A stretch of DNA of 64,000 nucleotides from an uncultured delta proteobacterium (GCA_963804165.1 CAWDPO010000003.1:64001-128000); one strand, 5' to 3'. Shown: positions 23,696 to 34,008, counted from the stretch's first letter. Notes: generated by a model not told the origin, from the sequence alone. Made by a program: numbers and translations.

Positions 23696-24721
23696 ATGAA
23701 TGATCTCCTATCAGCACGTTGGAGCACGATCGTCCTGGCTGTACTCTGGTCGATCATGATGGCATGGAATTCCCAGAGCGCGGAACAAACACTTACCGCG
23801 AAGCCGGAAAAAACCCGCCTGGAAGTCGGCACGGCGGGCTCGGGCACCACGAGTCTGCCGCTCTTCGTTGCCCTCGAAGCCGGCTACTTTGCCAAGCGGG
23901 GTCTTAACGTCACGGTCAATCAAGTCGGCGCGACCATCGCGGTCCAGGGCGTTATTTCGGGAACCATCGATATTTATCAGGGCGGCACCGCCGCCATCGC
24001 GGCGAATTTGGCCGGCGCGGATATTATTTACGTCGCGGCGGCGGTGGACAAGAACTCGCTCAACTTGTTCGGACAAAAGGGAATCACCTCTTTCGAGAGC
24101 TTGCGCGGCAAATCGATCGCGACTACGTTTCCCGGCGCCTTCGGCGAAATCGCGATTCGCATGAGCGCCCGCAAACAAGGCATGGAGGTCGGCAAAGATT
24201 TGAAACTGCTCTATCATCGCTCGCCACCGGAGGCGCTCTCGACCTTTTTCTTGGGCAATGCCGATGCTCTCGTCATCACTCCACCGCAAACCGAGCTGGC
24301 CAAACAGCAGGGCTATCCAATCATTATCGACTACTACAAAGAAGGATTAAAAATCGTCGGTCCGGGCACTTCGGTGACGCGCGAGTTTTTACAAAAGCAT
24401 CCGAATACGATCAAGGCGTTTCTCATGAGTTATCTCGATGGTGTGAAAAGGGCCGTTGACGATGAAGAATTCGCCAAGAAGATCGAGTCGAAGTACACCA
24501 AGATTTCCGACCCTAAAATCTTGTCTGAAAACTACCAGCAAGGATTGCGGGTGTGGAACAAGGACATGACCGTGGATCCGGCGGCGATCCGGGTGGTATT
24601 GGATGAATCGTCGGATGCCAAGGCGAAAAGCGCCGACGCAAAGAAGTTTTACGACAATACTCTCATTCAGGCGGTCAACCGCGACTATGCGTCGAAGCTG
24701 TTTCCGGGGGAAGTAAAGTAA
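23696..24721 (+). CDS. ABC transporter substrate-binding protein (NMT1/THI5-like)
   Basis: Signal peptide, GYFAKRGL, LRGKSIA. Confidence 0.88.
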   Translation: MNDLLSARWSTIVLAVLWSIMMAWNSQSAEQTLTAKPEKTRLEVGTAGSGTTSLPLFVALEAGYFAKRGLNVTVNQVGATIAVQGVISGTIDIYQGGTAAIAANLAGADIIYVAAAVDKNSLNLFGQKGITSFESLRGKSIATTFPGAFGEIAIRMSARKQGMEVGKDLKLLYHRSPPEALSTFFLGNADALVITPPQTELAKQQGYPIIIDYYKEGLKIVGPGTSVTREFLQKHPNTIKAFLMSYLDGVKRAVDDEEFAKKIESKYTKISDPKILSENYQQGLRVWNKDMTVDPAAIRVVLDESSDAKAKSADAKKFYDNTLIQAVNRDYASKLFPGEVK

Positions 24722-24845
24722 ATCATAAGACGTGAGGGTGAAGGTAAGGCGTAAGGCGCAGGAAGCGCTTCACGGTCTCAAATCGTCGGCTCGGAAAGAC
24801 AAACGGGTTGATGAGAAAACTAGACTAGGTCAAACGGCGAGAAAT

Positions 24846-25511
24846 TTAGTGATGTCCCGGGCTTTCCCATACGGCCATAGCGGCGCGGCAGCACAGAACG
24901 TCTTGCTCCGGGCGGGTCGCGCCGGCGACGCCGATGGCGCCGACGATGGTGACGCCGTTGAGAATCGGCACCGCGCCGCTCACGGCCATCATCCGTCCGT
25001 GATGGGAAACCATCAGACTGCGCAGCCACGGTTGGCGCGCCTGCTGCGCCAGCTCCGCGGTCGGCACATGGAGTGCGGCGGCGGTGTAGGCTTTGTTGAA
25101 GGCTAGCTCCGTCGATCTCGGTTCCGCTTTGTCCATTTTTCCCACGGCAATGGGTGCGCCGGCTTCGTCGACGACAGCGGCGCTGACCGCGATGCCAAAC
25201 AGCTGCGCGTAATCCTGGGCGGCATGAATCATCTCCCACGCTATGTCGAATGGCACCGGTCCGACCGCTGCTTTGTTCTTGCGGAAGAAGGCTGCGTTTA
25301 CTTCGATCGATGGAACGTGCTCGGCGGGGATATCGATATCTTTGAAGATCGCGTCCACCGGGCAAACGATCTCGCATTGCTCGCAATCGATACAGACTTC
25401 AGGATCGATGTAGAACTGCGGCGCGCCGGGCGTAGTGTGAATGCACGCGACCGGGCAAACTTCGACGCAGGCGCCGTCGTTGGTGCACAGGCTGGTGATG
25501 ATGTACGGCAT
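24846..25511 (-). CDS. FdxA-type ferredoxin fused to a GlcG/HbpS (DUF336) domain
   Basis: N-terminal CTNDGACVEVCPVAC and CIDCEQCEIVCP; C-terminal VVDEAG, AFNKAYTA, GAVPI...VGAIGVAG. Confidence 0.88.
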   Translation of the reverse strand: MPYIITSLCTNDGACVEVCPVACIHTTPGAPQFYIDPEVCIDCEQCEIVCPVDAIFKDIDIPAEHVPSIEVNAAFFRKNKAAVGPVPFDIAWEMIHAAQDYAQLFGIAVSAAVVDEAGAPIAVGKMDKAEPRSTELAFNKAYTAAALHVPTAELAQQARQPWLRSLMVSHHGRMMAVSGAVPILNGVTIVGAIGVAGATRPEQDVLCCRAAMAVWESPGHH

Positions 25512-25534
25512 TCAAATGTCTCCCAGAATAAATG

Positions 25535-25650
25535 AGTTCAAGGTTCAAGTTCCAGCCCCCACCTCTTTCCTCCCCCGCGTCGCGGGGGAGGATGAAGGAG
25601 GGGGATTGAACAGAGCGGAGCGGTTGAACGGCTTGAACATTTTGAACTCT
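25535..25650. repeat. REP-like hairpin flanked by GTTCAA/TTGAAC repeats
   Basis: CCTCCCCCGCGTCGCGGGGGAGG hairpin plus periodic TTGAAC units. Confidence 0.65.
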
Positions 25651-25656
25651 CTTCAG

Positions 25657-26241
25657 TTAGCCGTCCGCCGCGAGCGGCAAATCGGTGCGGATTACGTTGG
25701 CCACGTGAGCGTTGGCGCCAAACCGTGGCGTTACCAATCTTCCTTCTTTATCCAGCGTGCCGAGACCGGCTCTGGCGGCCAACTTTTCAGCATCCGCGTC
25801 CGGAGCGGCGGTAGCACGATAACCCAGCTCCCTGATCCACGCGCTCAGCACGAAGCTGATGAAAAGCCCTTTTTGCACCGGCACCTGGCCGCCGATGCCT
25901 GGTGATTCGCGTGGATCGTAATCGGCATGCACCGCGCAAATGACCGCAAACGGATAGAATTCACCGTTGCGTGTATCTTCGGGAGTCAGTCTGGCGATGC
26001 CCGTCATCTCGGCGCCGAAGTACTCCGCCATTCCTTTTAGATGACCCGAGGTGATCTCGGGGGTGTGCAGCTCGGTTTTCGTTGGAAAAACGTTGCCCTC
26101 GGGGGCGTTGCGGATCATCTCGGTGACCGTATTCGCGAGATCCGCGGCGGGTGTTTTGATGAAAAAATCCCAGTAGGGATCGTCCTTGTGAGAGTTTTTC
26201 CCGAGCCAGGGTAACTTGAGCGGACCAAGTCGCAAGGCCAC
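25657..26241 (-). CDS. Short RdhA/QueG-like cobalamin-binding-domain protein without Fe-S motifs
   Basis: HLKGMAEYFGAEMTGIA, IRELGYRA, AGLGTL, FGANAH..IRTDLPL; stops where RdhA Fe-S motifs would begin; GTG start overlaps the upstream TAG. Confidence 0.8.
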   Translation of the reverse strand: MALRLGPLKLPWLGKNSHKDDPYWDFFIKTPAADLANTVTEMIRNAPEGNVFPTKTELHTPEITSGHLKGMAEYFGAEMTGIARLTPEDTRNGEFYPFAVICAVHADYDPRESPGIGGQVPVQKGLFISFVLSAWIRELGYRATAAPDADAEKLAARAGLGTLDKEGRLVTPRFGANAHVANVIRTDLPLAADG

Positions 26242-27581
26242 TAGGCGTCCCGTTTGACGAATCGATTCGTGTTCTCTTTGAGCGGCGCGTAGTAGCCGAC
26301 ATTTCCCGTGACGGCGCTTGCCGCACTCTTCTCGTGCGAGGCGTTACAGCCGGCGACGGTGCAAGCGTGCTCACCCGGCTTGACGCCGGAGTCGTAGCCG
26401 AGCCAGGTGACGCGGGCATTGCGCACGACGCCCCAGAAGCGGTCGTCGATCCATTTGAGAAAACGCACCAACGCCGGACGCGCGAAGTAAGGAAAAGCAT
26501 GAAGCATCGACACCGTCATCGTGTGCCACCAGACATTCGGTTTGGTAAACGGGCAGACGGTGGCGCAGGTGAGGCAGCTGCCCCAATGTTCGTGCACGTA
26601 CGGTCTGAGCTTGTAGCAAGTGAGCCAATTGATCTTGTATTTTTCGATACCGTTGAAGACCACCTTGTCGCCGAACGGAATGCTGTTGGTCGGACAAGTG
26701 TTGGCGCATTTGCGGCAAATTTTGCAAAAGTCATCGACGCCGATATCCACCGGCTCGTCTGCGACCAGCGGCAGGTCGGTTAAGATAGGGTCGGGCATAT
26801 GAATGCGGGCGCCGAAATTTTTGTTAATCACCAGTCCATTTCTGCCCAATTCGCCGATGCCTCCGGCCACGCCCGCCGCCTGCGGAGTCACTACGCCGCG
26901 GAGCGCCGTGTAGCCCAGTTCTTTGATGTAGCCTTCGAGCGCCTTCAGCACCATCACGCCTTTCATTTGCGACACGTGGTACGCGGCGTCGCCGATCTGA
27001 TGGCGGTGTGCCTGAAGTTTGTTGTAGTCCCACGCGGTCGTCGCTTGGATGACATAGGGAAACTTCCGCGCCAGATCTTCCGGCGAATTGCTTTGGAAGT
27101 CGTCCTTCGCCGTGCCGTCCTGGACGTAGCGGCCTCCGCCGGCGGCATAAAGATAAGAAGGGTGCGTCTTGGCGATGCCGACGACATCGGCTCCCATATA
27201 GAGGGCGACGGCTTTGATGTGGCGCGCCATCGCCGCGGGATCGTCCACCGCGACTTTTTGCGAATTGACTTTGCCGTTGCTCGACCGATTGATTACGTTG
27301 GTCAGAAAATGTCTGCGATCGGCGAAGTGGTTGGGAGCCGAGACGCGGGTCAAGGGATCTTTGGAGACGGTGTTGCGATACCAGTTGAACAGCGGTTTGC
27401 CGAGCTCGCCGCGCTGATTTTTCGGATGCGGCGACTGGTTCATGTCGACGTTGACATGCTCACCGACGATTTTGACCGACCGCCCAAGGTAAGGCGTCGG
27501 AAATTCTTCGCCGGCGTGTCCGCCGTTGGTGCCCGTAATTTCGCTGGGCTGTTGCGCTTTCTTCTCAACTGTCAGGGCCAT
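26241..27581 (-). CDS. Reductive dehalogenase (RdhA)/QueG superfamily B12- and 2x[4Fe-4S]-dependent enzyme
   Basis: HIKAVALYMGADVVGIA, GIGELGRNGLVI..FGAR..TDLPL..D.PVD.G, FCKICRKCANTCP, C-X13-CLTCATVCP; no TAT signal. Confidence 0.88.
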   Translation of the reverse strand: MALTVEKKAQQPSEITGTNGGHAGEEFPTPYLGRSVKIVGEHVNVDMNQSPHPKNQRGELGKPLFNWYRNTVSKDPLTRVSAPNHFADRRHFLTNVINRSSNGKVNSQKVAVDDPAAMARHIKAVALYMGADVVGIAKTHPSYLYAAGGGRYVQDGTAKDDFQSNSPEDLARKFPYVIQATTAWDYNKLQAHRHQIGDAAYHVSQMKGVMVLKALEGYIKELGYTALRGVVTPQAAGVAGGIGELGRNGLVINKNFGARIHMPDPILTDLPLVADEPVDIGVDDFCKICRKCANTCPTNSIPFGDKVVFNGIEKYKINWLTCYKLRPYVHEHWGSCLTCATVCPFTKPNVWWHTMTVSMLHAFPYFARPALVRFLKWIDDRFWGVVRNARVTWLGYDSGVKPGEHACTVAGCNASHEKSAASAVTGNVGYYAPLKENTNRFVKRDA

Positions 27582-27641
27582 AACACACTCCTTTTTAGAT
27601 CGGTGCGTAATCGGCTGTTCAATGGTTCAAGCCAAATAATG

Positions 27642-28040
27642 TCATGAATACGACGCCAGCGCCACTTCGGCACACTTCTGATCTTGATCGTCGGTGCCGC
27701 CCGCTACGGCAATGGCGCCGACGACGTTGCCGCCTTCGACGATCGGCAAGGCGCCGCCGCCGGGCATTATACGCCCGTTGCTGGACACCACCAGACTCTG
27801 AAACCAGGTCTGCGCCGCGACACCGGCCAACTCGTTCGTCGGTTGTTGAAAACTGGCCGCGGTGTAGGCCTTGTTGAGCGCTATTTCGACGGTGATCGGG
27901 CGCGCTTTGTCCATGCGGCCTAAAGCTATCATGCGGCCGCTCTGATCCACGACTACGGCGGTCACGGCAATATCAAGTTGGGCCGCCTGCCCGTGCGCGT
28001 TTCGAACCATCTGAATCGCCTTTTCTCCAGGGATAGCCAT
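27642..28040 (-). CDS. GlcG/HbpS family heme/cobalamin-binding protein
   Basis: VVDQSG, ALNKAYTAA, GGGALPI, VGAIAVAGG..DQD; GAGGAG RBS. Confidence 0.9.
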   Translation of the reverse strand: MAIPGEKAIQMVRNAHGQAAQLDIAVTAVVVDQSGRMIALGRMDKARPITVEIALNKAYTAASFQQPTNELAGVAAQTWFQSLVVSSNGRIMPGGGALPIVEGGNVVGAIAVAGGTDDQDQKCAEVALASYS

Positions 28041-28064
28041 TGTCTTGTGCGATCCTCCTCGTTG

Positions 28065-28112
28065 CTAAGTCAGTTTCTTAGTGTATCAGAGAAGTGGGAT
28101 GAGCAGTCAAGA
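28065..28112 (-). promoter_or_regulatory. Putative promoter and operator of the glcG/rdhA-like operon
   Basis: Minus strand: TTGACT...TGA-TACACT (extended -10) followed by palindrome CTAAG-N7-CTTAG (28065-28081). Confidence 0.45.
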
Positions 28113-28258
28113 CCTATCTTCGCTGGTGTGATCATGGATTCCGTCATCCATTCGCACTGGCCGGTGCTTCCCTGTTAGCATTGCAAGCCAGACCAAGATG
28201 TCGGGCGCCCAGTAGCTGTGGCATCTCGTGACAATAGGGCGCCCAAAGGGAGGTTATT

Positions 28259-28744
28259 GTGTATCTGCGTACGGTGATTATCGTGTCGGTACTCGGGATT
28301 CTTGTCATGTTCGCTCTTTTGAACTGGAACGCCTTTACCACGGCAATGCCCCTTTCCGTGGGATTTACCACAGTGGAAGCGCCGCTCGGGCTGTTCTTGC
28401 TCGCAGTTATCGCGCTACTCACGGTGCTGTTTCTTATTTATGTTGTTTATTTGCAGTCCTCGACGTTGGTCGAAAGCCGGCGTCAAACACGCGAGCTGCA
28501 GGTCCAACGCGAACTTGCCCAAAATGCGGAAGCATCGCGCTTCCATCAATTGAAGATCGCCGTGGAAACCGCGCTGCGCGAGCAGAACAACCAAACGCTC
28601 GAATTTAAAAACACCGTTCTCGCGCGCCTCGAAGAGCTCGAGCGCGATTTGCGTTCGACGGTGGAGCAGTCGGGCAATTCAATCGCCGCCTATCTCGGTG
28701 AAATCGAAGATCAGTTCAAACGCGTCGCCGGCGGAAATAAATAG
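28259..28744 (+). CDS. LapA (DUF1049)-family membrane protein with coiled coil
   Basis: Two TM segments with FALLNW...LSVG...APLGL; GGAGG RBS. Confidence 0.8.
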   Translation: MYLRTVIIVSVLGILVMFALLNWNAFTTAMPLSVGFTTVEAPLGLFLLAVIALLTVLFLIYVVYLQSSTLVESRRQTRELQVQRELAQNAEASRFHQLKIAVETALREQNNQTLEFKNTVLARLEELERDLRSTVEQSGNSIAAYLGEIEDQFKRVAGGNK

Positions 28745-29829: not shown

Positions 29830-31095
29830 TTAGTTTTTTGCGCTCACTCGCCACACTTTGCCGGCGCCGTCGTCGGCGACGAGCAACGACCCGTCCGTCC
29901 ACTCCGCCACGCCTACCGGACGGCCATAGACTTGGCTGGCTTTCTGGTTGGCGATAAATCCCGTGAGAAAATCTTCGAGAGGGCCGCTCGGCTTGCCGTT
30001 TTGAAAAGGGACGAAGGCAACTTTGTAACCCACCAGATCGGAACGGTTCCACGAACCGTGCATGCCGATGAAGGCGCCGCCGTGATAGCGCGCCGGAAAT
30101 GATTTTCCCCGGTAGAAAGCCAAACCGAGCGGCGCCACGTGGGAGCCCAAAGCAAAATCTGGTTTGATCGTCTTGGCGACGAGATCGGGGCGCTGGCCTT
30201 TCTTGCGCGGGTCTTCGTTCTGGCCGAAATAGGCGTAGGGCCAGCCGTAAAAAGCGCCGTCGCGGACGCTCGTTAGATAGTCGGGTACGAGCTCGTCACC
30301 GAGCATGTCGCGCTCGTTGACGATCGTCCATAAAGTATTCGTCCGCGGTTCCCAGTCCATACCGACGGGATTGCGCATGCCGGCGGCGAAAACTCGCATG
30401 CCGCTGCCGTCCGGACTGACTTGCAGAATAGCGGCGCGGCGCGGGTCCTTTTCATCGACACGCTGCTCGTCGACGTTGGTCGCCGAGCCGACCGCGATGT
30501 AAATTTTCTTGCCCGAGGGATCCACGAGCACGTTTCTCGTGTAGTGGCCGCCTCCGGGCAGATCGAGGACCTTTTCGGGCTGCCGTTTAATCTGCGTATC
30601 GCCGGCGCGGTAAGGAAACACGACGAGTTCGTCCGTATTGCCGACGTAGAAGCGATTGCCGATGAGCGCCATGCCAAAGGCCATGTTCAACCGGCGCAGG
30701 AAAGACTGCCGCAGGTTGGGTTTGCCGCTTTTCGTGGTATCGCGCAGCAACACGATGCGGCTGGGAGATTGTTGCGGCAGCGATTGCATGACCAAGACAT
30801 CGCCGTTCGGCAGGACGTAGATCATCCGTGGATTGTCCAATTCGTCGGCAAAGAGGCTGACCTCAAAGTTTCCGGGGGCTATCGGCGTCTTTCCCTTCGG
30901 CCAGGGAATCACCGTAGCCGGATTCGCCACCGCGCGCGTCGCGTTGGGGGGCGGCAGCACCAACTGCTCCGACGGGCCGGTCTCGATGACCTGGCGGGAC
31001 GCCGGTTCGGCCGCGAAGAGCCGCGGCGATGAGCGAGAAGGATGATTAACCGCAAAGAACGCCAAGGTCGCAAAAACGACAGGAAAAATTTTCAT
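29830..31095 (-). CDS. L-sorbosone dehydrogenase-like (PQQ sugar dehydrogenase) protein
   Basis: GMRNPVG, NERDMLGD..PDY, FYGWPY, HGSWNR, GRPVGV. Confidence 0.9.
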   Translation of the reverse strand: MKIFPVVFATLAFFAVNHPSRSSPRLFAAEPASRQVIETGPSEQLVLPPPNATRAVANPATVIPWPKGKTPIAPGNFEVSLFADELDNPRMIYVLPNGDVLVMQSLPQQSPSRIVLLRDTTKSGKPNLRQSFLRRLNMAFGMALIGNRFYVGNTDELVVFPYRAGDTQIKRQPEKVLDLPGGGHYTRNVLVDPSGKKIYIAVGSATNVDEQRVDEKDPRRAAILQVSPDGSGMRVFAAGMRNPVGMDWEPRTNTLWTIVNERDMLGDELVPDYLTSVRDGAFYGWPYAYFGQNEDPRKKGQRPDLVAKTIKPDFALGSHVAPLGLAFYRGKSFPARYHGGAFIGMHGSWNRSDLVGYKVAFVPFQNGKPSGPLEDFLTGFIANQKASQVYGRPVGVAEWTDGSLLVADDGAGKVWRVSAKN

Positions 31096-31143: not shown

Positions 31144-32430
31144 TTATTTCTTCGCGGTGACGCGCCAGATCTTGCCGCCGCTGTCATCGGCGACTAGAAG
31201 AGAGCCGTCGGACGCGACGGTTACGCCCACCGGACGGCCATAGGCTTCGAACTTGCTCTCATCGGCGATGAAACCGGTGAGGATATCTTCCAGCGGACCG
31301 GTGGGCTTGCCGTTTTCAAAACGGAGGAAAGCAACTTTAAAGCCGACCATCTTTGACCGGTTCCACGAGCCATGCATGCCGATGAATGCGCCGCCGCGAT
31401 ATTTCTCGGGAAATGCCTTGCCCTGGTAAAAGGCCAGACCGAGGGCGGCTACGTGGGAGCCGAGAGCGTAGTCTGGTTTGACCGCTTTGGCGACCAGGTC
31501 CGGCCGCTGGCCTTTCTTGCGCGGATCCTCGATCTGGCCGAAGTATGAATACGGCCAGCCGTAGAAGGCGCTGTCTTTTACGCTCGTCAAATAATCGGGA
31601 ACCAAATCGTCGCCGAGAAGGTCGCGCTCATTGACCACGGTCCACAGAGTCTTGGTACGCGGCTCCCAGTCCATGCCGACGGCGTTGCGCAGCCCCTTGG
31701 CGAATATTCTCATGCCGCTGCCGTCGGGATTGATCTCTAAGATTCCGGCGCGCCGCTGATCTTTCTCCCAGCCGTTTTCCTCGTCCACATTGGACGCGGA
31801 GCCGACCGCGACGTAGATTTTCTTTCCCGCCGCATCGGCGAGAAGGTTACGCGTGTAGTGGCCGCCGGCAGGAAGGTCGAGAATCTTCTCACCCTTGCCG
31901 TCAATTTTCGTTTGGCCGGCTTTGTACGGATAGCGAACCACGCCGTCGGTGTTGCCCACATAAAACCAGTTTCCGAGCGCCGCCATGCCGTGCGGCATAT
32001 TGAGTCCGGTCAAGAAAACCTCGCGGACTTCGGGTTTCCCGTCGCCATTGGTGTCGCGGAAAAGCGTGATCCGATTGGCCGATTTCTCGGGCCGATCCGC
32101 GCGCCCGGGCCACTCGCGAATGGCTTCGACGACAAGAATATCTTTATTCGGGAGCACATAAGCCTGACGGGGATTATCAAAGTTGTCGGCGAACAAGCTC
32201 ACTTCGAATCCCGGCGCCGGCGTTGGCATTTTTCCTCTCGGCCAGCCGACGACTTTCGAATTATTCCGGGCCGACGGAGTGTCGAAAGGCGCGGGGAGCT
32301 TAAGTCGGTCCACCGGGCCGGTGCCCGCGGGGTATTCAACGCCGGCTCGATCATTTTGAGTGATCGCGCAAGAGAAGATGGCAGCAGCCCCGATGATTGC
32401 GGCGATCGTGATGACATAGCGATGGATCAT
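31144..32430 (-). CDS. L-sorbosone dehydrogenase-like lipoprotein (tandem paralog)
   Basis: Lipobox-like IFSC; same motifs as the neighbouring gene. Confidence 0.9.
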   Translation of the reverse strand: MIHRYVITIAAIIGAAAIFSCAITQNDRAGVEYPAGTGPVDRLKLPAPFDTPSARNNSKVVGWPRGKMPTPAPGFEVSLFADNFDNPRQAYVLPNKDILVVEAIREWPGRADRPEKSANRITLFRDTNGDGKPEVREVFLTGLNMPHGMAALGNWFYVGNTDGVVRYPYKAGQTKIDGKGEKILDLPAGGHYTRNLLADAAGKKIYVAVGSASNVDEENGWEKDQRRAGILEINPDGSGMRIFAKGLRNAVGMDWEPRTKTLWTVVNERDLLGDDLVPDYLTSVKDSAFYGWPYSYFGQIEDPRKKGQRPDLVAKAVKPDYALGSHVAALGLAFYQGKAFPEKYRGGAFIGMHGSWNRSKMVGFKVAFLRFENGKPTGPLEDILTGFIADESKFEAYGRPVGVTVASDGSLLVADDSGGKIWRVTAKK

Positions 32431-32586
32431 GACGCTTTCCTCCTTGGGAAATTTTTACCGTCAAGCCGAGGGCTCACGACGGGAGTAACATATACAATAA
32501 ACTTCGGTTGCGGCGAAAGCGAGATCGCATTGGTTGTGCGCCGGGGCTGGTCCGTTCTAATATCGGCCCGGACTGCAGGAGGGTAC

Positions 32587-34008
32587 ATGCACTATCGTGA
32601 TTTGCGCGGTTGGCTGGAGGGGGTGGACTCGTTCGGCGAACTGCGCGTTATCGAAGGCGCCGACTGGAATCAAGAGATCGGCGCCGTGGCGGAAGTTGCG
32701 GCGCAGTCTCAGCCGCCGCCGGCGGTACTCTTCGACAAGATTAAAGACTATCCGGCGGGCCGCCGCGTCCTGACCGGCATTCACAATCCGACGCTAAAGC
32801 GCCAATGCCTGACCAATCATCTGCCGCTCGATTACAGCCGCGATCAATTCATCGACGCCTGGAAAAAGCGTCTGGACAATCCCACGCTTATTCCGCCCCG
32901 AGTCGTCGACTCCGGGCCGCTGCTGGAAAATGTTTTCGAAGGGAATGACATCGATCTCCTGTCCTTGCCGGCGCCGCATTGGCACGAGGGCGACGGCGGA
33001 CGCTATATGGGTTCCCTCGACATCACGATCAGCCGCGACCCCGACGAAGACTGGATCAATCTTGGCTGTTATCGTGTCATGGTGCACGACCGTGACACGC
33101 TCGCGCTCTATATTTCTCCCGGACATCACGGCAACATTCACCGGCAAAAATATTTCGATAAAGGCATGCCGTTTCCGGTGGCGATCAGCTTCGGTCCCGA
33201 TCCGTTGCTGTGGTTCTTCGGCCAGATGGAAATTCCCGCAGGGCAGTCGGAGTACGATTATGCCGGCGGGGTGCGCGGCGAGCCCTATGAGGTGATCCCA
33301 GGCAAGCATACCGGGCTGCCGATTCCAGCTTACTCCGAGATAGCGATCGAAGGCGAAGTGATTCCCGGAACGAAAATTCCCGAGGGTCCTTTCGGCGAAT
33401 TCACCGGCTACTATGCGGGCGGGTTGCGCTCCGAGCCGATGCTCAAAGTGAAGCGGCTCATGTATCGCAACGATCCGATCATCACCGGCGCGCCGCCGTT
33501 CAAGCCGGCGCCCGGCGCGGAAAACAATCTGATCCGCGCCGCTTATATTTGGCATTACCTCGACAAGGCCGGCGTGCCGGAGGTGCGTGGGGTCGCCTAT
33601 TATCAGACGCGCATGTTGGTCGTCGTGGCGATCAAACAGCGCTATCCGGGACATGCGCGGCAGGCGGCGCTGATCGCGTCGCAATGCCGAGCCGCCGCGC
33701 TGCTCACGCGTTACGTCGTCGTGGTCGACGAAGACATTGATATCTGGGACAGCAATGAGATTCTGTGGGCGCTGTGCACGCGCACCGATCCGGCGAAAGA
33801 TATCGATATCGTGCGCCGCTGCTGGAGCAACCCGATAGATCCGATTATCCCGCCGAGCGAGCGCGGCTTTCAGTCGCGCGGCATTATAGACGCCTGCAAG
33901 CCCTACGAGTGGATGAATGAATTCCCAAAAGTTTCCGGCGCCAGTGAAGAATTAAAAAAGAAAGTTACCGCGAAGTTCGGCGCGAGCCTGGCGGGCAAGA
34001 AGAATTAA
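32587..34008 (+). CDS. UbiD family decarboxylase
   Basis: DLRGWL, DGGRY, NLGCYR, EGPFGEFTGYY, VVVDEDID; AGGAGG RBS before ATG 32587. Confidence 0.93.
   Translation: MHYRDLRGWLEGVDSFGELRVIEGADWNQEIGAVAEVAAQSQPPPAVLFDKIKDYPAGRRVLTGIHNPTLKRQCLTNHLPLDYSRDQFIDAWKKRLDNPTLIPPRVVDSGPLLENVFEGNDIDLLSLPAPHWHEGDGGRYMGSLDITISRDPDEDWINLGCYRVMVHDRDTLALYISPGHHGNIHRQKYFDKGMPFPVAISFGPDPLLWFFGQMEIPAGQSEYDYAGGVRGEPYEVIPGKHTGLPIPAYSEIAIEGEVIPGTKIPEGPFGEFTGYYAGGLRSEPMLKVKRLMYRNDPIITGAPPFKPAPGAENNLIRAAYIWHYLDKAGVPEVRGVAYYQTRMLVVVAIKQRYPGHARQAALIASQCRAAALLTRYVVVVDEDIDIWDSNEILWALCTRTDPAKDIDIVRRCWSNPIDPIIPPSERGFQSRGIIDACKPYEWMNEFPKVSGASEELKKKVTAKFGASLAGKKN

Follow-up and report, generated by a model that had tools for sequence, protein, structure and literature searches.

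Soluble reductive dehalogenases of the catabolic type (NpRdhA, BhbA and JtRdhA; structures 4RAS and 6ZXU-6ZY1) contain a cobalamin core and two [4Fe-4S] clusters and have neither a twin-arginine translocation (TAT) signal nor an RdhB partner. Their catalytic core is joined to a vestigial copy of itself that replaces a second monomer; this fused copy of the cobalamin core mimics the monomer-monomer interface of respiratory PceA and, in NpRdhA, binds no cobalamin, according to the available portion of PMC10463259. NpRdhA has been driven in vitro by a ferredoxin (PMC10463259; PMC7565698, both in the portions available), while an attempt to reconstitute its native redox chain failed (same portion of PMC10463259). 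Here we describe a four-gene operon at positions 24846-28040, on the minus strand, of a 64,000-nucleotide stretch of DNA from an uncultured delta proteobacterium (GCA_963804165.1 CAWDPO010000003.1:64001-128000), the whole of which is called the window below. The operon encodes an RdhA-like enzyme, a short paralog of it that lacks the iron-sulfur (Fe-S) domain, and two proteins of the DUF336/GlcG family, one of which (Fd-GlcG) is fused to a ferredoxin and the other of which (GlcG1) stands alone. Sequence comparison and structural models suggest that this cassette works like a split enzyme of the NpRdhA type with a dedicated ferredoxin.

The enzyme shares with the NpRdhA type its soluble nature, the lack of a TAT signal and of RdhB, the cobalamin core with two [4Fe-4S] clusters and, as predicted, the pairing of a catalytic core with a vestigial copy of itself; it finds in NpRdhA its best match among solved structures, and holds invariant polar residues at the positions of K488 and R552. 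A ferredoxin would drive it as well. Unlike in that type, however, the vestigial copy is a separate downstream gene derived from the enzyme's own family, so that a single core occupies the 446 amino acids (aa). The enzyme also differs in having no PDOR reductase domain, in forming a separate clade, in the absence of Y426 and in a His in place of K488, and its cassette adds the dedicated ferredoxin-DUF336 fusion and, in soil lineages, GlcG1. Respiratory PceA (4UQU; 8Q4H from Desulfitobacterium/Dehalobacter) has the same fold, the same cofactor motifs and dimerisation through the cobalamin core, but the respiratory RdhA/RdhB systems have the TAT signal and the RdhB that are missing here, and form homodimers where a heterodimer with a dead paralog is predicted for the present enzyme. 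In addition, the enzyme has a His for Arg305 of PceA and no equivalent of Tyr246 in the canonical alignment column. QueG (TIGR00276; 5D08, 5D6S) is a cytoplasmic member of the same superfamily that also uses B12 and two [4Fe-4S] clusters.

A class of 'simplified cytosolic' RdhA-like proteins, which like the respiratory enzymes have no vestigial domain, has been published for Desulfobacterota and Chloroflexota (PMC12219181, Microbiome 2025, in the portion available). These proteins are short (about 400 aa), have no fused vestigial domain and bear the same phylum labels, and the enzyme family probably falls into or beside this class; the trans-encoded paralog, the ferredoxin-DUF336 fusion and the loss of the catalytic Tyr go unmentioned in that portion of the paper. 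By analogy, the trans-encoded copy may be seen as filling the gap that the vestigial domain leaves in such proteins. Literature searches found no published description of the trio or quartet of genes, of a vestigial subunit in trans, of the fusion or of the loss of the canonical Tyr, a negative limited by the supplementary gene-neighbourhood tables of PMC12219181, which may contain the cassette. Nor did they find literature linking 'reductive dehalogenase' to GlcG or to Binatia, or anything relevant in the SAR202 literature. An earlier note on this DNA had stated that the operon matches neither the respiratory nor the catabolic layout. This was only partly right, because the NpRdhA solution is supplied here by a separate gene, as an in-trans equivalent of the fused vestigial domain; what stands is that no named RdhA subclass fits fully, and the enzyme lacks several membership features of every one of them.

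The reading towards which we lean, with moderate confidence, is that the four genes specify a single soluble and cytoplasmic reductase system, B12-dependent and of the RdhA superfamily, in which a heterodimer of enzyme and dead paralog removes a leaving group reductively, Fd-GlcG supplies the electrons and GlcG acts as an accessory. The 446-aa protein would be the catalytic subunit, its cobalamin core and two [4Fe-4S] clusters being assigned by homology, and is predicted to work in an obligate heterodimer, its partner being the 194-aa paralog to which it is translationally coupled. Having lost the Fe-S domain and the active-site motif, the paralog would stand in for the second PceA monomer or, in NpRdhA terms, for the fused vestigial domain. 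Electrons would pass from the 7Fe-ferredoxin domain of Fd-GlcG to the Fe-S clusters of the enzyme, and, since the cassette encodes no reductase, the ferredoxin is presumably charged by a housekeeping one. The fused GlcG domain, together with GlcG1 in soil lineages, may be an oligomeric accessory that holds the ferredoxin near the enzyme and/or binds a tetrapyrrole (corrinoid or heme), either loading cobalamin or keeping it reduced in oxygen-exposed cells; this GlcG role is the weakest step of the scheme. Most likely the enzyme would act on an organic substrate that is hydroxylated or anionic and would strip a leaving group, probably a halogen, from it reductively; because the canonical proton-donor Tyr is missing, both proton donor and substrate would differ from those of all characterised RdhAs.

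A conserved four-gene unit

All four open reading frames (ORFs) that the earlier note had reported as co-oriented were found on the minus strand. The first gene of the operon encodes GlcG1 (27642-28040; 132 aa), a DUF336/GlcG/HbpS-like protein, and is followed after 60 nt by that of the RdhA-like cobalamin/2x[4Fe-4S] reductase (26241-27581; 446 aa). The gene of the Fe-S-less RdhA-core paralog (25657-26241; 194 aa, GTG start), a probably non-catalytic protein, overlaps the latter by 1 base, the junction reading GAC GCC TAG TG GCC; the TAGTG stop/start overlap on which translational coupling had been proposed is thus visible in the sequence itself. After a further 145 nt follows the gene of Fd-GlcG (24846-25511; 221 aa), in which a 7Fe-type ferredoxin (residues 1 to about 80) precedes a DUF336/GlcG domain (89-212). 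Transmembrane-like segments are absent from all four proteins, no twin-arginine motif of the RRxF type occurs in the first 70 residues of any of 30 RdhA-like family members, no RdhB-like or small membrane gene is conserved among the neighbours of related loci, and no reductase or PDOR domain is fused to the RdhA-like protein. The absence of a TAT signal, an RdhB anchor and a fused reductase, claimed at the outset, is borne out. Automatic annotation already calls these proteins 'reductive dehalogenase' and 'heme-binding protein' or 'ferredoxin'.

A scan of species-representative genomes anchored on the RdhA-like protein returned 70 loci, whose neighbours were tallied by tblastn. Forty-six of them, mostly labelled Binatia or 'delta proteobacterium', encode an enzyme at least 70% identical to that of the window; GlcG1 lies upstream at 41 of the 41 with enough upstream DNA, and downstream the paralog is found at 41/41 and Fd-GlcG at 34/35, with a single exception (L011). 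The remaining 24 loci, at 50-59% identity and with Chloroflexota, Dehalococcoidia or SAR202 labels, have the paralog and Fd-GlcG in 23 of 23 cases each and GlcG1 in none of 23. With Fd-GlcG as the anchor of a further scan, 64 loci were returned, which added Rokubacteria/Methylomirabilota labels; many contigs are common to both scans, and the two sets of counts are not independent. GlcG1, RdhA and the paralog are all present at 41 of the 43 Fd-GlcG loci that have at least 3500 nt upstream. At the two exceptions, L145 and L151, the only Fd-GlcG copy has been relocated and the GlcG1-RdhA-paralog trio stays intact on a different contig, so the genes still co-occur in these genomes. The four genes are a conserved unit and not a chance neighbourhood, which answers the question of co-occurrence elsewhere, with a trio lacking GlcG1 in Chloroflexota.

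The moved Fd-GlcG of L145 (G002:C16, 4001-4666) stands after an ABC transporter (SBP_bac_5 and two permeases) and, as in the window, faces genes of NMT1-type binding proteins, a setting which suggests that it was the GlcG1-RdhA-paralog part that left the ancestral site. Beyond the operon no genes are conserved; the commonest neighbour, an NMT1-type binding protein, occurs at 12 of the 46 close loci in a tally based on crude ORF calling that includes antisense ORFs.

Median identity to the window proteins is highest for GlcG1 (91%), followed by RdhA (82%), Fd-GlcG (79%) and the paralog (70%), the least conserved of the four. GlcG1 is 86-98% identical over all close loci, including those with labels of other phyla, some of which are short contigs and possibly binning errors. 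The enzyme occurs in only 7 of 151 sampled genomes of the window's class (its own genome counted) and in 5 of 8 of its own family. This sparse distribution, taken with the near-uniformity of GlcG1, fits horizontal spread of the cassette. At 90% identity the RdhA-like family as a whole falls into 497 clusters (E<=1e-5), of which some hold hundreds of sequences. Two RdhA orthologs, at L010:1864-3177 and L030, contain an in-frame stop (near the C-terminus in L010), possibly from sequencing errors or decay of the copies, and were excluded from the family alignment.

The enzyme and its probable, separately encoded partner

The 446-aa protein scores 148.1 bits (144.3 in a second run) against the reductive dehalogenase model TIGR02486, whose cut-off is 160.35, and 58.5 bits against the QueG model TIGR00276, whose cut-off is 200; PF13486 was not reported for it in the Pfam scan. 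A dicluster Fer4 stretch spans residues 286-345 (Fer4_7, 31.2 bits), and the Fe-S ligands C286xxC289xxC292xxxC296P and C322...C336xxC339xxxC343P comprise eight Cys that are invariant in all 30 family members, in agreement with the two Fe-S motifs first noticed here. Sequence matches in the PDB run from NpRdhA (1.6e-29) through PceA of Sulfurospirillum (5.2e-27) and PceA of 8q4h (7e-19) to QueG (1e-9). The genome contains a true QueG elsewhere (G000:C46:180189-181184; 397.3 bits) and two further RdhA-like genes with 38-41% identity to the enzyme.

In a maximum-likelihood tree of 37 rows (quick IQ-TREE search), the enzyme family forms a clade of its own, with a Shimodaira-Hasegawa-like approximate likelihood ratio test (SH-aLRT) value of 100 and a long stem of 1.19. 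The NpRdhA-like proteins (SH-aLRT 100) and the Dehalococcoidia RdhAs that exceed the TIGR02486 cut-off (99; RRxF signals in 5 of 13 proteins) form two other clades, and the mutual order of the three is unresolved; the enzyme thus falls outside the NpRdhA-like group, the two clades being separate with an SH-aLRT of 100 each. QueG is a distant outgroup. Identification of the enzyme as a QueG was rejected on its low QueG score, on the outgroup position of QueG and on the presence of the organism's own QueG, and the phylogeny that had been called for places the enzyme with RdhA. An AlphaFold2 (AF2) monomer model of the enzyme, which was poor, was used for Foldseek ranking only and never for residue mapping; its match to PceA reached 4e-14. 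Two other builds were seen in passing. A Rhodospirillales metagenome-assembled genome encodes a 448-aa member of the NpRdhA clade (L094:2983-4329) that has no N-terminal vestigial domain and is sister to the full-length NpRdhA-like proteins, with no paralog gene visible on its 4.7-kb contig. In P0312, a protein of 685 aa, two complete RdhA-like units stand in tandem, both equipped with Fe-S motifs of their own; this represents another two-core build.

The paralog is 27% identical to residues 60-275 of its partner (BLASTP, E 2e-17) and its last residues, TDLPLAADG, fall precisely on the Fe-S domain border. Its profile matches that of its partner's family with an E of 3.7e-28, in an alignment of 186 columns that takes in the family-specific N-terminal helices, and that of the NpRdhA family with 1.9e-11, aligning there to the real cobalamin core (317-502; both by hhalign). 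Since the match to its own family is far better than that to NpRdhA, the paralog is an independent duplicate of the first two-thirds of its partner, analogous rather than orthologous to the vestigial domain of NpRdhA as far as profile comparison goes. Orthology to that domain had been considered on account of a slight preference of phmmer for NpRdhA 76-219 (20.9 vs 16.6 bits), and was overruled by the profiles. Neither Y201 nor the AHRH motif of the enzyme's active site is present in the paralog. The description of the paralog as holding only the corrinoid-binding core is apt for its fold and no further; it does not cover the N-terminal helices, which are also retained, or the lost active-site motif.

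Pairing of the two proteins is supported by structure prediction. The paralog alone gave an AF2 model with a predicted local distance difference test (pLDDT) score of 84, which matches NpRdhA with a Z of 16.2 (root-mean-square deviation 4.7 Å over 179 residues), PceA with a Z of about 13, QueG with 11.9 and, further off, CblD (7.8), CblC (6.8) and nitroreductases. The predicted complex of enzyme and paralog reached ipSAE values of 0.88, 0.90 and 0.88, with 0.00 for the best of three controls. Of 80 solved complexes 58 come up to this mark, as do 2 among 110 mismatched pairs. At least 86% of contacts recur between the runs, and the pLDDT of the partner is 86. Equivalent helices form the predicted interface (enzyme 114-129 and 199-222 with paralog 66-75 and 116-139), which also takes in the invariant D21, W24, D34 and N37 of the paralog. 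The models thus lend support to binding between enzyme and paralog, and the heterodimer suggested earlier is predicted with high confidence relative to the controls.

Independent support for the pairing comes from a fused relative. A profile search with the paralog over 1.84 billion representatives returned 60 clusters at E<=1e-30, most of them proteins that stand alone and measure 180-215 aa. It also returned P0291 (603 aa), in which an Fe-S-less N-terminal domain, 33% identical to the paralog (E 9e-19), is fused to a related RdhA; the latter shares 30% identity with the enzyme across 376 columns (E 2e-47). A separate search with the paralog for longer proteins gave three matches, of which P0122 is a fragment of the P0291 type and P0121 was discarded as an indel-ridden read-through artefact.

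That the paralog is no dead scaffold at all, and instead holds a second corrinoid for storage, regulation or a second active site, or acts solely as a maturation chaperone, we consider very improbable. Its full nitroreductase-like core fold, modelled with high confidence, is that of the B12 chaperones CblC (MMACHC) and CblD (MMADHC), and salvage or hoarding of corrinoids could matter in an 81%-complete genome in which CobS and CobQ were not found. To our knowledge, CblD itself does not process B12. The CblC-CblD pair, for which entry 9mrs is titled an MMACHC-MMADHC-B12 complex, offers an architectural analogy only, being distant kin with no Fe-S clusters and a different chemistry. A live function fits poorly, moreover, with the low conservation of the paralog (70% against 82% for RdhA), with its missing Y201 and AHRH, with the position of its invariant residues in the predicted interface and not in a pocket, and with the analogous domain of NpRdhA, which binds no cobalamin in the account of PMC10463259 cited above.

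Active site and chemistry

In NpRdhA, Y426 and K488 form a proton-donating dyad, the K488Q variant is inactive, and the substrate hydroxyl is hydrogen-bonded by K488, R552 and S422 (PMC7565698, in the portion available). The canonical columns are accordingly those of the proton-donor Tyr (NpRdhA Y426, PceA Y246) and of its basic partner (K488, R305), and they were read from an L-INS-i alignment of the 37 tree rows. In the Y426 column, Tyr is found in 9 of 9 NpRdhA-like proteins, in 12 of 13 Dehalococcoidia RdhAs and in both the C41 paralog and the QueG of the window's own genome. The enzyme family has it in none of 13 rows, the residue being Gln205 in the window and Leu or Ala in the others. 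The hhalign alignment places Y426 inside a five-residue insertion that is missing from the family. An invariant Tyr, Y201, lies four residues upstream of Q205 and in the S422 column by L-INS-i; phmmer sets it one column from Y426, whereas hhalign and L-INS-i do not.

The other pocket positions are held more firmly. Three methods (phmmer, hhalign and L-INS-i) agree that the counterpart of K488 is H261 and that of R552 is R326; His261 occupies the K488/R305 column in all 13 rows, and both H261 and R326 are invariant in all 30 sequences. These 30 sequences also share an invariant motif of their own, AHRHxIGDxAY, of which AHRH covers residues 191-194. The alignments put an invariant Tyr/His/Arg set where NpRdhA binds the hydroxyl of its substrate, so that this pocket is kept in position. 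With the canonical Tyr gone and its basic partner a His, dehalogenase activity is not assured, and from the sequence it is likely rather than settled.

The same architecture could accordingly serve another chemistry, as a third functional type of the RdhA/QueG superfamily that is not a dehalogenase and that would reduce a non-halogenated substrate, for instance an epoxide, a hydroxyl, an N-oxide or another leaving group; such a substrate could come from organic matter of soil and sea or belong to a pathway for a cofactor or nucleoside. We regard this as somewhat unlikely, if a serious possibility. The active-site changes just described, the family's own motif, the sub-threshold dehalogenase score and the separate stem all speak for it; further, the hosts, by their labels, are not organohalide respirers, and QueG is an instance of non-halogen chemistry on the same fold. 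Set against these are the closeness of the enzyme to RdhAs rather than to QueG by every score, the invariant polar residues at the positions of the NpRdhA hydroxyl pocket, the patchy, cassette-like spread through 7 of 151 class genomes, which is typical of catabolic traits, and the amidohydrolase_2-like and cupin-like genes that adjoin a sister subfamily. Reductive removal of a leaving group, probably a halogen, continues to be the reaction that we favour.

A bolder version joins this chemistry to the other proteins of the cassette. It would make the cassette a third functional branch of the RdhA/QueG superfamily, an oxygen-exposed, cytoplasmic B12 reductase with a rewired Tyr/His/Arg pocket and a non-classical, possibly non-halogenated substrate, working as an obligate heterodimer with its dead paralog and served by Fd-GlcG, together with GlcG1, as a dedicated reductive activator or corrinoid loader; we rate this rather unlikely.

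Proposed electron supply, GlcG proteins and setting of the operon

The presence of two GlcG/HbpS domains around the enzyme pair, one of them with a ferredoxin, is confirmed by matches to PF03928 of 100 bits for GlcG1 and 98.8 bits for residues 89-212 of Fd-GlcG (cut-off 25), and by Fer4 family and ferredoxin models over the first ~80 residues of the latter. The FdxA equivalog models were not reached (NF045480, FdxA_Actino, 69.8 vs 125; NF045490, 52.6 vs 135); they span proteins of about 105 aa, and Fd-GlcG matches over those first ~80 residues only. Its nearest solved relatives are the 7Fe ferredoxins 1bc6 (6.5e-19), 2v2k, 1h98 and Azotobacter FdI, of types that include M. smegmatis, Thermus and Azotobacter. 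The Cys pattern is C9, C15 and C19-P followed by C40xxC43xxC46xxxC50-P. We take the general form of this pattern, C-x5/7-C-x3-C-P ... C-x2-C-x2-C-x3-C-P, to denote the [3Fe-4S] and [4Fe-4S] sites of a 7Fe ferredoxin. Relatives of Fd-GlcG fall into 1139 clusters at 90% identity, and among the 120 listed all carry the fusion.

A second RdhA subfamily, 38-41% identical to the enzyme, supports the ferredoxin as electron donor, since a plain 7Fe-type ferredoxin of about 85 aa follows all four copies seen (G000 C45, G002 C16 and two in G003). The copy in the window's genome (G000:C45:170819-172321; L072/L074; 41% identity) is apparently frameshifted into parts of 325 aa and 71 aa before an 82-aa 7Fe-type ferredoxin, and its flanking ORFs look amidohydrolase_2-like and cupin-like by eye.

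The DUF336 proteins PduO-C, OrfY, HbpS, NahX and EfgA are the described relatives of the GlcG domains, resembling them in PF03928 scores of about 100 bits and, in the cases of PduO and OrfY, in association with B12 enzymes; in two characterised cases they are oligomeric tetrapyrrole binders, with His18 as a ligand residue in PduO-C. They differ in lacking the 7Fe-ferredoxin fusion and the linkage to an RdhA-type enzyme, neither of which we found in print. The nearest solved structures to GlcG1 are OrfY of K. pneumoniae (2a2l; E 3.8e-19) and NahX (9jth; E 4.5e-15), followed by PduO-C (5cx7), EfgA and HbpS. PduO-C is an octamer that binds heme tightly and aquocobalamin in an 'extremely weak' manner, while HbpS binds aquocobalamin (PMC4923194, in the portion available). 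EfgA is a formaldehyde sensor, and the role of DUF336 in catabolic gene clusters has been termed elusive (PMC8153426, in the portion available); NahX belongs to an aromatic meta-cleavage operon and is given there as of unknown function (PMC5336314, in the portion available). A His in the N-terminal helix is kept in GlcG1 and is His or Gln in Fd-GlcG.

This mixed record also allows the GlcG proteins to be sensors or protectors towards small molecules or redox state instead of cofactor carriers, through product sensing of the EfgA kind or heme-based scavenging of oxygen or peroxide; the fused ferredoxin would then serve a redox cycle of GlcG, and the enzyme would be reduced by another donor. Such roles would suit the findings on EfgA and on PduO-C, the aromatic-degradation setting of NahX, a close solved relative, and the two genomes in which Fd-GlcG is unlinked from the enzyme. 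We nevertheless hold them to be distinctly unlikely, since Fd-GlcG tracks the enzyme pair over two or more phyla (34/35 and 23/23 loci) and the sister RdhA that lacks Fd-GlcG has a plain 7Fe ferredoxin in the same place, which points to the ferredoxin part as the partner of the enzyme.

Several points weigh against the reading of the operon as one ferredoxin-driven reductase system. The enzyme falls below the curated cut-off of the dehalogenase model, lacks the canonical proton-donor Tyr in all 13 rows and has His for its Lys/Arg partner; its AF2 monomer, from the 30-row alignment, has a mean pLDDT of 58, and the pass of the predicted complex may lean on the solved PceA dimer and the NpRdhA pseudo-dimer. 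No ferredoxin reductase, regulator or transporter is conserved nearby in the neighbour tally, Chloroflexota do without GlcG1 (0/23), and in two genomes Fd-GlcG has lost its linkage to the enzyme. Further, the alignment shows no potential tetrapyrrole ligand, and no His, that is invariant across both GlcG groups, and the family includes a formaldehyde sensor (EfgA; PMC8153426) and a member that hardly binds aquocobalamin (PduO-C; PMC4923194; both in the portions available). The scaffold or cofactor role of GlcG is the weakest link on account of the missing invariant axial ligand and this mixed family record.

The 145-nt spacer between the paralog and Fd-GlcG (25512-25656) contains a strong hairpin on the minus strand (25545-25610), with four GTTCAA and two TTGAAC repeats around a GC-rich stem and a minimum free energy of -61.1 kcal/mol (z -4.9). 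Elsewhere among Binatia loci the repeat words at this place differ but follow the same palindromic design (z -3 to -6; L001, L010, L013, L031, L036, L037, L040, L069, L158 and others), and the Rokubacteria spacer of 21-24 nt has no hairpin. The hairpin could set the ratio of enzyme to ferredoxin or could be a REP-like (repetitive extragenic palindromic) element. An Rfam search of 24400-28700 found no riboswitch, and gave only sub-threshold miRNA-like matches on the hairpin.

Contigs 88-99% alike that cover the RdhA gene and the paralog occur in four soil RNA libraries from four studies, one of which (X16) also covers part of Fd-GlcG, and in three of the four they bridge the RdhA/paralog junction. 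These contigs come from relatives and may include carried-over DNA, and are weak evidence; the word share of all matching sequencing runs is at most 0.16, and the uncovered parts, mostly GlcG1, are uninformative. Searches of the genome for CobS (TIGR00317) and CobQ (TIGR00313) found neither, although at 81% completeness this gives no proof of their absence, and found six proteins with B12-binding domains; this is at most a hint that corrinoids are salvaged. Some ORFs that are not conserved with the operon lie a few kb away; by eye they encode two tandem secreted glucose/sorbosone-dehydrogenase-like proteins (29830-31095 and 31144-32430) and a long UbiD-like protein (31858-34008) whose 5' end is apparently over-extended; a neighbour in a relative matches PF07995.

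An understanding of this cassette would bear on several matters. Cytosolic RdhA-like genes are counted as 'dehalogenases' in soil and ocean metagenomes, and the substrate of an abundant family without the canonical Tyr would alter how such counts are read. Going by the models, the pseudo-dimer of NpRdhA may be a recurrent solution, fused in NpRdhA and P0291 and split here, and a dead paralog supplied in trans would explain why an RdhA expressed alone might fail. A native ferredoxin partner would also aid the in vitro study of oxygen-tolerant dehalogenase-like enzymes. The linked ferredoxin-DUF336 fusion is a concrete candidate for such a partner and may give DUF336 its first biochemical role beside a B12 enzyme, a question that dates from PduO-C and HbpS; if the cassette were indeed a third branch of the superfamily, it would provide the first mechanistic role of the DUF336/GlcG family in B12 enzymology.

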